A model generated the notes under the pieces. It was not told the DNA's origin. It made no database searches and was given only the letters and a program-made list of their open reading frames with translations. The translations under genes and the position numbers were made by a program. Shown one piece after another: positions 27,162 to 54,829 of a stretch of 64,000 nt of DNA. The stretch is from Marinicella sp. (GTDB taxonomy: Bacteria; Pseudomonadota; Gammaproteobacteria; Xanthomonadales; Marinicellaceae): positions 640,001 through 704,000 of the forward strand of contig OZ246001.1 of the NCBI GenBank assembly GCA_965230295.1. The letters are read 5' to 3'. Position 1 is the stretch's first letter. Each line of letters opens with the position of its first letter.

Positions 27162-27401
27162 ATGAGAAAGACAGGATTGTGTGTGATCCTTTTGTTCAGC
27201 CAACTGGCGTTTGGGCAATTGGAGATTAACAAAAAACTGATAGGTCATTCCGGCCAGCAATCAGAAAGTGACAACTATGAGCTGACAGCCAATATTACAC
27301 AGGGCATCAGTAATCAAAATATGTTGTCTGCCAACTATGCGTTGCAAGCTGGTTTCTGGCAGGAGAACACAGATTTAATTTTCAAAAGTGATTTGGATTG
27401 A
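27162..27401 (+). CDS. small secreted protein (79 aa) with C-terminal DLIF motif; putative adaptor
   Basis: Signal peptide ending AFG; YELTANITQ...YALQAGFW; ends TDLIFKSDLD; 9 nt before the fibre gene. Confidence 0.75.
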   Translation: MRKTGLCVILLFSQLAFGQLEINKKLIGHSGQQSESDNYELTANITQGISNQNMLSANYALQAGFWQENTDLIFKSDLD

Positions 27402-27410
27402 GGTGGGGTT

Positions 27411-28796
27411 ATGAAATATATGAAGATATTATTGTTGGCAGTCGTTTCGACTTCGGTTATGGCTGTACCATTAACAACGGAGTTTACTTTTCAGGGTGAG
27501 TTGATAGACTCAGGATCACCAGCCAATGGTGACTTCGACGTAAACTTCAGGTTGTACGATACTGCAGCCGGCGGTTCGGAAGTTGGTACTGTAGTATTTG
27601 TAGACGATTTAACTGTGAGTAACGGTTTGATCCAAACCGACATCGATTTTGGAGATGTACCATTCATGGGAGAGGCTGTTTGGGTACAGGTTGAAATCAG
27701 GCCGGGTACCAGTGTGGGAGCCTTTGAGGTTTTGAGCCCAAGACAAAAGGTCACATTAACACCATATTCAATACAGTCTATGTTTGTTGCCGATGGTGGC
27801 GTCACTTCCAGCAGCATCGCTAATGATGCTGTGGGTACCGCAGAAATTGATTCATCAGAAGTACAACAACGCGTTTCAGGAACCTGCCCAGTGGGTTCTG
27901 CCATGCGTGTGATCAATGAATCTGGGACAGTGACTTGTCAAGCAGCAGATGACAATGACTGGAGTATCGTGGGCAATTTCACCAGTTCAAACACACCTTT
28001 TGTGGGAATCAATACCACCAGCAGTATCGGCTCAGGATCATTCATGGTCAAAAGTCCTTTTTCAGATACATTCGGTGGCATGTTTGTGGATGTGGATGGC
28101 ACAGGATTTGAACAACCATTTTATGGCTATGCCACCAATGGTAGTTTTCGGGCATGGTCAGAATTCAATGAAAACGCCGATCAAATACGCTTCAATATCA
28201 ATAACAGCTACAAATTGGCCCTAGACAGCAATGGAAGATTGGGTGTTAATGAAACCAACCCACAACGAAACCTGCATGTGGACGGGAATGCAAGAATTGA
28301 AGATTTGGGTTTTGTTGGGTCTGGTCGTGCACAGGTCTTGGTCGAACCTGATGGTGATCTCGTCACAGGTCCCACAACACACACCATTGCCGTTCCACCG
28401 GCCGCTTTCACCGTTGAAGAGCCAGGTGACAGTTTTCAAAAAGTTTTGGGTAACGGACATGCCTTTATTCTGAGTGGTTTTGGTGCCTTATCAGCACCGG
28501 TGTATTTACCGGATGGCGCTGTTGTGACACGAGTGGATGTATGGTATCTGGACAATTCTGTTCAGGACTTGACTTTACGGCTCAGGCGCTCATCTCACAC
28601 TTCGATCAGTAACAGTGACCTGGCTGCTATTCTACCCAGCGGGAGTGTGGCAGGTATTCGTACCGCAGCGGATACCAGCATCAGTGTTCCAACGATTGAC
28701 AATGATGCCTTTTCCTATTATTTCAGGGTCTTTTCAAGCAATTGGACAGGTGTCAACATGGGTATCAGGGCCGTGAAGATCACATACAGATTATAA
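27411..28796 (+). CDS. secreted mosaic fibre/adhesin-like protein
   Basis: Signal peptide; N-terminal FTFQGEL..FRLYD..NGLI..IDFG domain; V(T/G)xxxI repeats; QRVSGTCP..GTVTC; tail-fibre-like GRLGVNETNP..LHVDG; beta-rich C-terminus. Confidence 0.75.
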   Translation: MKYMKILLLAVVSTSVMAVPLTTEFTFQGELIDSGSPANGDFDVNFRLYDTAAGGSEVGTVVFVDDLTVSNGLIQTDIDFGDVPFMGEAVWVQVEIRPGTSVGAFEVLSPRQKVTLTPYSIQSMFVADGGVTSSSIANDAVGTAEIDSSEVQQRVSGTCPVGSAMRVINESGTVTCQAADDNDWSIVGNFTSSNTPFVGINTTSSIGSGSFMVKSPFSDTFGGMFVDVDGTGFEQPFYGYATNGSFRAWSEFNENADQIRFNINNSYKLALDSNGRLGVNETNPQRNLHVDGNARIEDLGFVGSGRAQVLVEPDGDLVTGPTTHTIAVPPAAFTVEEPGDSFQKVLGNGHAFILSGFGALSAPVYLPDGAVVTRVDVWYLDNSVQDLTLRLRRSSHTSISNSDLAAILPSGSVAGIRTAADTSISVPTIDNDAFSYYFRVFSSNWTGVNMGIRAVKITYRL

Positions 28797-28818
28797 AGTT
28801 GATTGACAGAATAAAGAC

Positions 28819-28848
28819 ATCACACAGGCATGTCTTGTCTGTGTGATT
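28819..28848 (+). terminator. putative terminator of the adaptor-fibre operon
   Basis: ATCACACAGGCA-tgtct-TGTCTGTGTGAT stem followed by T residues. Confidence 0.5.
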
Positions 28849-28964
28849 TCAGGGTATTGAATAAACAGTTTAAACGCAATTAAAAACCACATGCTCAGAA
28901 ACGAGAAAACCCCATGGTTTGGGGCTTCCTAGATCATTCTTTAAGTTTTATTCTAAGGTGTCAG

Positions 28965-29623: not shown

Positions 29624-30148
29624 ATGAAACGGATCCCACAGCAAGGGTTTACTTTGATTGAATTGATCATCGCATTAAGTATGTTGTCGATATTGACAGC
29701 CTATGCCATACCCAATTACCGAACTTTTAAATTAAACAAAAGCATGACCACAGAAGTGAATCGCTTGGTGGCCACCATCAATTATGCAAGGAGCAAAAGC
29801 ATCATTCTTCAAGAACATGTGATCCTGTGTGCCACCGAATCTTACATCAGTTGCGACGGCAACAGTCAATGGCACCTGGGGTGGATGGTGTTTGTAGACT
29901 TTGACCGAAACAAGGTGTTTGGCGAGAATGACCTGATGCTGCAAAATGAAATCAGCATGACCGGAAACTTAACGGCCAGAACTTCGCAATTCAGACCCCG
30001 GATCAGGTTTGATCAAACCGGGTTTGCACCAGGTACCAACTTAACCATACGATTTTGTGATGAGCGCGGCCAGGAGCATGGCAAAGCCATCGTGATCAGC
30101 AATGTAGGACGCCCCCGAGTGGCTCAATCAATCAACACCTGTGGTTGA
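29624..30148 (+). CDS. fimT: FimT/GspH family minor pilin (orphan)
   Basis: Prepilin cleavage site QQG/FTLIEL; YARSKSI, WHLGWMVFVD; C-terminal GRPR. Confidence 0.82.
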   Translation: MKRIPQQGFTLIELIIALSMLSILTAYAIPNYRTFKLNKSMTTEVNRLVATINYARSKSIILQEHVILCATESYISCDGNSQWHLGWMVFVDFDRNKVFGENDLMLQNEISMTGNLTARTSQFRPRIRFDQTGFAPGTNLTIRFCDERGQEHGKAIVISNVGRPRVAQSINTCG

Positions 30149-53358: not shown

Positions 53359-54738
53359 TCACTGAAATCCATCAGCAAAAATCAGGTCATCCTGAGACTT
53401 GATTCTGATGGCAAAGCCATTGGTTACCTGGTTAATCACTTCAACTTCATAACCATCAATCGGGTCAACAAAGGTCTCACCGACTTTCCACATCACCCCT
53501 TCAGTATCGGCATAATTGGCGGCAGGAGCATCGCCATCGACCACCCAAGGCGGTTCGTTTCTTCCCGTATCCACATGATGAATAATCACCGCTGTATCAA
53601 CAATGTTACTCTCATACTGACCTGATGCTTGTCTGGATTCAATCACATAAAAGGTTCCGTCACTCAAGGGTATGCGGGCAAATTTATAATTGATGAAGGC
53701 GGTTGAAGCGGTCCAATTAACGATCAAAACTTCATCGGTGCTGCTGTTAGCAATGAAACCATCGGAATCATCCACCCAACCCAAGTTGTGTTTAAAATGC
53801 ATGTTGATGTGTTTACCCAAGCGGCCATAGACACTATCGTTTACTGCATAACCAGTGGCTGAACTCATCACATCCCAGGGGCTGTCATAGGGGTTGTCGT
53901 CACCGTCAGAGTTGTTGGCATGCGGCAGACCAAATCCATGCCCCATTTCATGGGCAATCACCCCCTCATTAGCAAATGCCCAGGGAGGATTCCAAGTTGT
54001 ACGCCATAATTTCTGCAAACCATCCAAATTGGCAAAACGACCGCCGCCCCAGGCGCAACAGTCCAACACATCATTGAACATCATGTTGATACCAACAAAG
54101 CTGCTGCCATTGGCACCCGTGGCAAAGTTCACCAAGGGGTCAGCCGCATCGGTGCAATCATCAAACAACAAGTCAAGATCAGAATCAAAATTAGACCCCG
54201 GGTTTGGAATGTAGGTGGTTTGTGGACTGGGTAAATCCACCCAATCAATGGCCAAAGAACCTACCACATTGATTTTATTAAAAGAAACTTCACGCCAATA
54301 ATGATCCAAACCAGCCGGTTGGTTGGCATACATGTTTTGAAAAAACGAGAGGTTTTCAGGCTCAGCATTTTTGTCACTGAACTTACATAAAATCGACACC
54401 CAGGGTTGCGGACCAGTAACACCGCCGACCCCTCGGCTGACTCCTTCAAGCAACTCCAACGCCTGTAATTTATTCTCACGACCATCAAACATTGGCGGGT
54501 GCTTGAGTGTTGCCGAAACCTTCAAACCAGCCCATTCTCTGATTGGCATGCGCTGCTCAAAAGCTGAACTTAAACTGAGCGGAATTTTATGGGTTTCAGT
54601 TTGGATAAAATACCGTTGGTGGTATTGTTCAGATGGTGGCTTGGCATCACCGATTTCATACACCAACACACCTTCTATTTTGTCAGCGTGGACCCAGCTG
54701 CTGATTGAAACAAGACACAATACCCATAGTAACTTCAT
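53359..54738 (-). CDS. secreted metzincin-type metalloprotease (M6/M11-like) with C-terminal DDLIFADGFQ
   Basis: Signal peptide; HEMGHGFGLPH (HExxHxxGxxH); Met-turn-like WDVMS. Confidence 0.85.
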   Translation of the reverse strand: MKLLWVLCLVSISSWVHADKIEGVLVYEIGDAKPPSEQYHQRYFIQTETHKIPLSLSSAFEQRMPIREWAGLKVSATLKHPPMFDGRENKLQALELLEGVSRGVGGVTGPQPWVSILCKFSDKNAEPENLSFFQNMYANQPAGLDHYWREVSFNKINVVGSLAIDWVDLPSPQTTYIPNPGSNFDSDLDLLFDDCTDAADPLVNFATGANGSSFVGINMMFNDVLDCCAWGGGRFANLDGLQKLWRTTWNPPWAFANEGVIAHEMGHGFGLPHANNSDGDDNPYDSPWDVMSSATGYAVNDSVYGRLGKHINMHFKHNLGWVDDSDGFIANSSTDEVLIVNWTASTAFINYKFARIPLSDGTFYVIESRQASGQYESNIVDTAVIIHHVDTGRNEPPWVVDGDAPAANYADTEGVMWKVGETFVDPIDGYEVEVINQVTNGFAIRIKSQDDLIFADGFQ

Positions 54739-54829
54739 AACCGTAAAACCTTTTTGTTAAACAAGTCATTGATTCTAAAGGTAAGAACCAGATTTGTATC
54801 TATTTTTCAAGCAAAACAGTCTGACAATT

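Follow-up and report, generated by a model that had tools for sequence, protein, structure and literature searches.

The 64,000-nucleotide stretch of Marinicella sp. DNA analysed here (the window) holds, side by side on the forward strand, a gene for a very small signal-peptide protein and a gene for a protein resembling phage tail fibres, and it is the relation between these two that concerns us. A first reading of the letters (the sequence-only reading) had described a 79-amino-acid (aa) signal-peptide protein lying 9 nucleotides (nt) ahead of a 461-aa signal-peptide fibre, and the open reading frames (ORFs) match that description (Table 1). The small protein opens with MRKTGLCVILLFSQLAFG, a plausible signal peptide, followed by QLEINKK..., continues with a core of the form SGQQSESDNYELTANITQG...NYALQAGFW, and has TDLIFKSDLD as its extreme C-terminus. 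The fibre begins with the signal peptide MKYMKILLLAVVSTSVMA, followed by V and TEFTFQGEL, and ends in ...KITYRL with no tag, in agreement with the first reading, which had it lack the tail of its neighbour. Each gene of the pair is single-copy in the 4.0-Mb genome.

Table 1. Features of the small-partner and fibre genes, with positions in the window
Feature	Position	Strand	Basis or remark
Small-partner gene	27162..27401	+	ORF, 79 aa and stop; secreted beta-hairpin core protein with C-terminal tag
Small-protein signal peptide, residues 1-18, MRKTGLCVILLFSQLAFG	27162..27215	+	Reading of the sequence, no predictor
Small-protein conserved core, residues 19-69, proposed fibre-binding part	27216..27368	+	Alignments
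C-terminal tag TDLIFKSDLD	27369..27398	+	Variant of the motif D-[LVI]-[IL]-F-x-x-[GD]-[FL]-[ED]-COOH ('GFE tail')
9-nt spacer between the genes	27402..27410	+	GAGGTGG, Shine-Dalgarno-like, overlaps the small-gene stop codon
Fibre gene	27411..28796	+	ORF, 461 aa and stop; MAT-like, tail-fibre-like adhesin, no C-terminal tag
Fibre N-terminal domain (N-domain), residues 19-132, FTFQGEL...SPRQKVTLTPYS	27465..27806	+	Common to all partner fibres; proposed docking site
Fibre neck and shaft, residues 133-321: RVSGTCPVGSAMRVINESGTVTC, GGMFV...PFYGYATNGSFRAW block, GRLGVNETNPQRNLHVDG	27807..28373	+	Blocks conserved in the alignment
Fibre C-terminal head, residues 322-461, beta-sandwich like a carbohydrate-binding module (CBM), presumed ligand-binding tip	28374..28793	+	Model
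Hairpin 3' of the fibre stop, possible terminator	28816..28850	+	RNAfold free energy -19.9 kcal/mol, 14-pair stem

Since the ribosome-binding-like stretch overlaps the first stop codon and a strong hairpin follows the second gene, the two genes probably form one transcription unit, with translation probably coupled. The hairpin is not among the sites of a consensus terminator scan, and the sites returned by the promoter and terminator scan were no more numerous than in shuffled sequence.

The tail of the small protein, which had been taken for a sorting or anchoring signal, is a genome-wide C-terminal tag: it recurs at the end of 100 proteins here. Scanning with the pattern [D..]-[LIV..]-[LIVM]-[FY]-x-x-[GDN..]-[FLY]-[EDQ], we found it in the last 21 residues of 100 of the 9,247 stop-to-stop ORFs of at least 80 aa, usually at the extreme end, against 2 ORFs for an internal 21-aa window and 3 for reversed tails. 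A crude signal-peptide test was passed by 87 of the 100 carriers. The small protein is the shortest of them, ending in DLIFKSDLD with nothing after, and D71 and F74 of its tag are invariant in the alignment of its relatives. Among GFE-tag carriers it amounts to little more than the tag and a putative binding core, and its neighbour is a fibre without the tag. A second carrier in the window (53359-54756, minus strand) is an ORF of 465 aa that has a crude signal peptide and ends exactly in DLIFADGFQ. The label also appears to work at either end of a mature protein, since a few proteins have the motif immediately behind the signal peptide and not at the C-terminus (genome positions 1551084-1558118, minus strand, and 2454322-2454921, plus strand; SIDLIFATGFEAP and MANDLIFKTGFENQ).

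Neither the small protein nor the fibre matches a Pfam, NCBIfam or PHROG family above noise, and the sole match in the PHROG scan was phrog_18874, of unknown function, at an E-value of 0.3. Pfam and NCBIfam scans of the small protein found no C-terminal domain (CTD) of type A of the type IX secretion system (T9SS; TIGR04183, PF18962) and no type I dockerin (PF00404), nor does it match the model of PamT, the tip pilin of pili of the candidate phyla radiation (NF058579, cut-off 240 bits). Its family is nonetheless very large, as well as uncatalogued. Out of 1.84 billion sequences, a profile built from 21 small proteins retrieved 10,216 representative relatives at E ≤ 1e-3, of which 1,238 also reach E ≤ 1e-10, whereas a word-seeded search with the small protein found only 2 close relatives. 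The relatives are mostly 80-130 aa long, some of them with two or three tandem cores, and a hydrophobic N-terminus is present in all those aligned. The core consensus is ...EI..S...GGG.S....Y.L.G.IGQ......GG.Y.L.GGFW; residues Q47 and G64 are invariant and GGFW nearly so in three alignments of relatives, and the core is conserved across phyla. In Gammaproteobacteria at large, at least 2 of 300 other sampled genomes (those of loci L025 and L026, discussed below) have the small core, a floor because at most 17 candidates were scored per genome. Sequence searches of the PDB gave no match for the core alignment and two, at E-values of 0.35-0.67, for the alignment of the fibre N-domain. At the far end of the size range, a 5,306-aa protein (P0177) matches the core hairpin partially in 24 places, and its end resembles, by eye, a T9SS type B sorting domain.

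Do the two genes belong together elsewhere? In every one of the 21 related loci that we collected (L003-L023), a small tagged gene and a fibre gene lie no more than 2 kb apart, the small gene being directly upstream in 19 of them and nearby in L010 and L020. Across 44 genomes of the family, N-domain matches occur in 37 (up to 20 per genome) and small-protein matches in 40, and the copy numbers of the two correlate (Spearman 0.95, over relatives that are not independent of one another). We listed 150 matches for each of the two proteins, with 43 and 7 further matches outside these lists. For 114 of the 150 listed small genes, a fibre N-domain on the same strand starts 0-400 nt downstream; the remainder lie directly downstream of a long fibre (9), on contigs with no listed N-domain (21) or elsewhere (6). 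Inspection of 14 stretches revealed a diverged subtype of the small gene downstream of fibres of 620-830 aa; two of these stretches (L037 and L040) yielded no small gene. One small gene precedes four tandem fibres in L027 and two in L028, fibres that share their N-domain only, and a single small gene can thus serve several fibres. The tail is carried by none of 19 related fibres. Among the 149 best relatives of the small protein, a strict pattern finds the tail in 114; by eye most of the other 35 have looser variants, and about 10 end in something else, such as Dockerin_1.

The pairing extends far beyond this family. With a degenerate DNA pattern of the core we drew at least 121 stretches from species-representative genomes and analysed 80 of them with 2-kb flanks: 42 from Planctomycetota, 14 from Chloroflexota, 13 from Verrucomicrobiota, two each from Acidobacteriota and Lysobacterales, one each from Gemmatimonadota, Sumerlaeota and Eisenbacteria, and four from other bacteria. 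All 80 contain a small-core ORF with a hydrophobic N-terminus. An ORF with the N-domain lies inside the 2-kb flank in at least 42 of them, with the fibre upstream 29 times and downstream 18 times. This count is a floor, because N-domains were found beyond the flank when five 'negative' loci were rechecked: in two of them a fibre (780 and 1,005 aa) was present whose N-domain lay just past the flank, and in one an N-domain lay about 2.7 kb away. The pairing spans at least seven named phyla; the two genes lie close together or overlap, and their order varies. That the two families would prove adjacent had been the first check proposed for this locus, and adjacency is what both samples display.

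The tail of the small partner changes with lineage (Table 2). Dockerin_1 exceeds its cut-off on four small partners (P0106, P0176, L026 and L161), and in L180 the small partner ends in a T9SS CTD that the neighbouring fibre lacks. None of the 37 cross-phylum fibres with a complete C-terminus bears any of these tails. The sequence-only reading had suggested that small partners in other phyla carry other anchors such as a T9SS CTD; the YLP-box, the T9SS CTD, Dockerin_1 and the lineage-specific tails found here bear this out. A comparison with cellulosomes suggests itself, where dockerin-cohesin adaptor scaffoldins are modular and connect the part that binds cargo with the part that anchors it. 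Dockerin_1 is likewise found on some small partners; here, however, the cargo-binding part would be a hairpin core of about 50 residues that belongs to no known family, and not a cohesin, and the cargo a fibre and not an enzyme.

Table 2. C-terminal tails of small partners by lineage
Lineage	Tail	Occurrence or score
Verrucomicrobiota	FYRLxxP	13 of 13 small partners
Chloroflexota	YLP-like	11 of 14; YLP-box (NF050076) above cut-off in L133
Planctomycetota	28 WLxxCPxxWPLK, 8 ending G-C, 6 other	G-C: weak GC-dockerin likeness, below cut-off
Lysobacterales	GFE	2 of 2
Eisenbacteria (L180)	T9SS type A CTD	TIGR04183 24.0 bits (cut-off 23); FlgD_ig 39.5 (cut-off 27)
Dehalococcoidia (L161)	Dockerin_1	Above cut-off

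One locus from another gammaproteobacterial family (L026:1-2454) encodes in a row a 211-aa PEP-CTERM/VPLPA-CTERM protein with weak likeness to floc_PepA, a small core protein with a TSP3/Dockerin_1 tail, and an N-domain fibre, a trio that could form a chain of anchor, adaptor and fibre. A cohesin in the PEP-CTERM neighbour was considered and dropped: Pfam at E ≤ 0.01 gave PEP-CTERM only, and we make no claim of one. Residues 20-94 of the small protein of this locus (L026:1228-1788, minus strand) align to positions 6-82 of the PamT profile with 26.4 bits, against the cut-off of 240; this is a lead only and may be a mere likeness of signal peptides. PamT is described, in parts of a preprint (10.64898/2026.03.03.709456), as a strand-accepting truncated Ig-like domain.

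The fibre consists of two confidently modelled ends and a poorly modelled middle. In the monomer model, pLDDT (the per-residue confidence of the prediction) is about 85-93 for N-domain residues 24-114 and again for head residues from about 320 to 461, and 30-60 in the shaft. The 'fibre-like repeats' of the sequence-only reading were an overstatement: there is one full G-x-[VL]-G-[IV]-x4-P...LHV.G segment (residues 275-292) and a partial one, FVGINTT. Its beta-rich head, on the other hand, is present in the model, with strands throughout residues 323-460. Compared with CBM22, CBM6, CBM35, CBM36 and CBM15, the head gives VIA-align Z scores of 10-11.7, with a root-mean-square deviation of about 3 Å over 115-134 residues, and Foldseek agrees; its ligand is probably a glycan. 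The best Foldseek matches of the whole fibre are the central fibre of phage lambda, gpJ, and the Bdellovibrio fibres Bd2133 and Bd2439. These are trimeric, a likeness that does not by itself make a trimer of the present fibre, which by analogy may be one. About 10 full-length relatives have 50-86% identity to the fibre, and some 85 more share mainly the first 130 residues or so: the relatives have the N-domain in common and differ downstream, as expected of a variable tip. The S74 chaperone domain (PF13884) occurs in 8 of 98 fibre homologues and not in this fibre. By eye, fibres with the small gene downstream often end not in a globular head but in a heptad-like, coiled-coil-looking stretch of the type ...LKQRLEALE... 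(L123, L136, L149, L153, L156, L157, L162, L171, L174, L177, L182, L030 and L032-L034).

The closest described counterparts are the mosaic adhesive trimer (MAT) fibres of Bdellovibrio bacteriovorus. Our fibre does not match their N-terminal model (NCBIfam NF053851, Bdello_MAT_N, cut-off 60 bits) at E ≤ 1; the model is weakly matched by 8 of 84 fibre homologues (best E-value 7.5e-4) and by the fibre of L026 (34.7 bits, E-value 1.4e-8). An hhalign comparison of 35 N-domains, whose alignment shows the domain to be conserved across phyla, with six Bdellovibrio MAT N-domains gave a probability of 95.4% (E-value 1.7e-8, 105 columns), and the fibre-homologue alignment compared with the same six gave 83.6%. 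With such an hhalign probability and no match to NF053851, we regard the fibre, on profile comparison, as a distant relative of MAT fibres that falls outside the family by its curated cut-off. In the two kinds alike, the signal peptide leads directly into a conserved beta-rich N-domain, behind which come a shaft of tail-fibre type and a tip that can be exchanged, and on both sides there are forms with and without an S74 domain. The N-domain here, however, has about 115 residues and lacks a Bdellovibrio insertion of about 30 residues, and the fibre is short, at 461 aa, compared with open frames of 522-4,503 aa in Bdellovibrio. A search for longer proteins with the N-domain gave one match and no names, and an Atlas search gave unnamed clusters only. 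Passages of Caulton 2024 (PMC10769870) report that in all 21 MATs the signal peptide is followed by a shared beta-rich domain some 130 aa long, and that this domain 'would presumably tightly bind a surface element', an element left unidentified in those passages; the parts of a 2026 review that we consulted add no partner for it.

Could the small protein be such a partner? The sequence-only reading had it bind the fibre's N-domain, a claim that is kept here in softened form. Complex models of the mature small protein with fibre residues 19-132 scored 0.55, 0.54 and 0.54, the highest of three controls reached 0.02, and the runs agree in at least 71% of contacts. Against this, the pLDDT of the partner in the complex is 46-48. 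Of 80 solved complexes 58 pass the mark that we used, as do 2 of 110 mismatched pairs, a rough comparison since our own alignments were used; those that pass with a score of 0.60 or less comprise 7 of the 80 solved complexes and both of the passing mismatches. The result counts as weak support. Because the prior from gene context is already high, the score adds modestly to it, and the small protein may bind the N-domain, be it through its core or through its tail; donor-strand complementation by the tail was considered as one way in which it might do so.

Taken together, the data lead us to propose that the small protein is an adaptor acting in trans, which binds the N-domain of the fibre and supplies it with an anchoring or sorting tag; we give this a probability of roughly 0.6. 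Both proteins would be exported by Sec. The beta-hairpin core (GTIGQ...GGFW) would then dock on the fibre N-domain, probably folding upon binding, and the nine-residue tag (D-L-I-F-x-x-G/D-F/L-E/D) would deliver the complex to the cell surface or hold it there. This would leave the CBM-like tip of the fibre free and pointing outward to bind its ligand, probably a glycan. Retention at the surface fits what is described in parts of Sorokin 2020 (PMC7691419), because a cultured Wenzhouxiangella, which preys on Gram-positive cells, has its lytic proteases bound to the cell and releases no free proteolytic activity into the medium. A wider version, in which the hairpin core of about 50 residues is a cross-phylum 'socket' for MAT-like N-domains and the tail a swappable address label, making up a general system of trans-anchoring or piggy-back export, is put forward more tentatively, and we would not wager on it at even odds.

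Of the other explanations, the one that survives best makes the small protein an assembly factor, be it a base cap or a chaperone that helps the fibre to fold or to form trimers, its tag doing no more than route the helper to the compartment of the fibre. Phage tail-fibre assembly or adaptor proteins of the Tfa and gp38 type offer the precedent: their small gene adjoins the fibre gene, they are required in trans and they act at the fibre tip. The adjacency seen here, in either order and often directly downstream as for phage assembly genes, agrees with this, as does a small protein that folds without confidence on its own (pLDDT 57, with 132 aligned sequences), and the complex prediction would fit binding of any kind. 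However, phage assembly proteins act on the variable tip, whereas in the present pairs a conserved small protein goes with tips that vary, one small gene serves two to four fibres that share nothing but the N-domain, and the small protein, unlike the Tfa and gp38 type, has a signal peptide and a putative sorting or anchoring tail and is associated with the conserved end of the fibre, its N-domain. No phage assembly or chaperone family of PHROG is matched at E ≤ 0.1. Swapping among recognised anchoring and sorting modules would, moreover, be unexpected in a transient chaperone. We therefore think an assembly role unlikely.

Several observations weigh against a trans-acting adaptor, and they are best taken together. 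Thirty-eight of the 80 cross-phylum loci have no N-domain within 2 kb of the small core; of the five that were rechecked, one lies in a genome (G352) with none anywhere, and another (L116) has none on its 7.2-kb contig. Conversely, 23 of the 150 listed N-domain matches have no adjoining small gene, some of them in arrays or at contig ends. In five Bdellovibrio genomes, each of which encodes 6-27 MAT N-domains, two profiles found no match to the small core at E ≤ 0.1, and one of these profiles matched four of four positive-control genomes; because these MAT genomes do without the core, a homologous N-domain is not always in need of a small partner. The core may also have other partners, because it is found fused to LamG or PKD domains and in tandem: in a gammaproteobacterial locus with no fibre present (L025:1468-3210, plus strand) it is the N-terminal module of a LamG (Laminin_G_3) protein in a 1,281-aa open frame, and in a Chloroflexota locus (L146:1794-3257, plus strand) it forms a 487-aa ORF with PKD domains and a YLP-box-like end, between two N-domain fibres. 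The N-domain fibre of another Chloroflexota locus (L139:49-1884, plus strand) has a tip ending in a hydrophobic helix and RRRQEEQ, which may be a membrane anchor or sorting signal of the fibre's own. The fold of the partner in the complex is uncertain, and the anchoring or sorting role that we infer for the GFE tag comes with no reader of the tag found here. Finally, not every tail behaves as the GFE tail does. CPxxWPL[KR] followed by a stop occurs 2, 3 and 5 times in the planctomycete genomes G351, G353 and G354 (loci L130, L162 and L120, respectively) and 0 times in a fourth, and both copies in G351 end small-core genes. With 0-5 occurrences per genome this is not a general tag; the idea that each lineage tail is a genome-wide tag was dropped, and the planctomycete tail seems private to the small-core family, unlike the GFE tail.

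Some of these points would suit a pair of independent surface proteins under common regulation, the small one being a tagged exoprotein, for instance a matrix or lectin-like hairpin, with no binding to the fibre. Cores without a nearby fibre, cores built into LamG, PKD, tandem or giant repeat proteins, and Bdellovibrio fibres that manage without a small partner are all what one would expect of it. Such independence is nevertheless hard to reconcile with adjacency maintained across so many phyla at tight or overlapping spacing while the gene order varies, with correlated copy numbers and with a complex score far above those of the controls; a mature protein of some 60 residues, made up of core and tag, also leaves little else to work with. 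We consider this very unlikely.

A protein bound to another could make use of the sorting signal that the other carries, as considered for T9SS cargo CTDs and for Tat 'hitch-hiker' export; L180 would be an instance of the former, since its small partner has a type A CTD and its fibre none, and the small protein of the window has no CTD. The variant of the adaptor reading in which the tag is chiefly a signal for crossing the outer membrane, so that the untagged fibre leaves only in complex and anchoring is secondary or absent, could thus appeal to L180 and to the hundred or so exoproteins with a GFE tag here, and is the least likely of all, since the dockerins of other small partners are attachment modules and not export signals, and the cultured relative with no free proteolytic activity in its medium points to retention on the cell (parts of Sorokin 2020, PMC7691419).

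If the adaptor reading is right, its first consequence concerns fibres. That bacterial cells can bear adhesins resembling tail fibres was discovered recently, with the MAT fibres of Bdellovibrio, and the module described here is a concrete candidate, present in at least seven named phyla, for what holds a MAT-like N-terminal end on the cell; it would be the first candidate class of partner for the MAT N-domain. Neither the family of the putative adaptor nor the fact that it pairs with fibres was found in the Pfam, NCBIfam and PHROG catalogues, and the literature searched (the supplements of Caulton 2024 not covered) gave no partner of a MAT fibre, no adaptor of a tail-fibre-like protein of this kind and no T9SS CTD acting in trans to a fibre.

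A second consequence concerns the tails. The putative sorting motif YLP-box (NF050076) ends, in Chloroflexota, the same small protein that ends in GFE here. Orphan tails replace one another, a T9SS CTD and a dockerin on one and the same small protein, and so would be functionally equivalent labels for surface sorting or attachment; by this argument the GFE tail, the YLP-box and FYRLxxP fall into a single functional class. GFE, YLP-box, FYRLxxP and WLxxCPxxWPLK would then be signals for sorting or attachment at the cell surface, identified by a swap experiment of nature's own. In the organisms considered here the tag system is probably central to feeding, because about 100 exoproteins are tagged and a cultured predator has cell-bound lytic enzymes (parts of PMC7691419). 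A unit of some 60 residues comprising core and tag would also make a compact tool for surface display.

The surroundings of the pair show nothing phage-like. The flanking genes, named by eye, are aldo-keto-reductase-like, MBOAT-like, ssb and pseudopilin-like, and are unrelated to it. The last of these is a 174-aa ORF (29624-30148, plus strand) with the prepilin-type N-terminus ...GFTLIELIIAL..., by eye a minor pseudopilin of the FimT/GspH kind; it lies about 0.8 kb downstream of the pair, past ssb, and no link to the pair was seen. In four of the related loci (L010, L011, L014 and L015) the flanks include a divergent or convergent gene whose product resembles, by eye, a winged-helix regulator of the CadC/OmpR type with TPR-like repeats.

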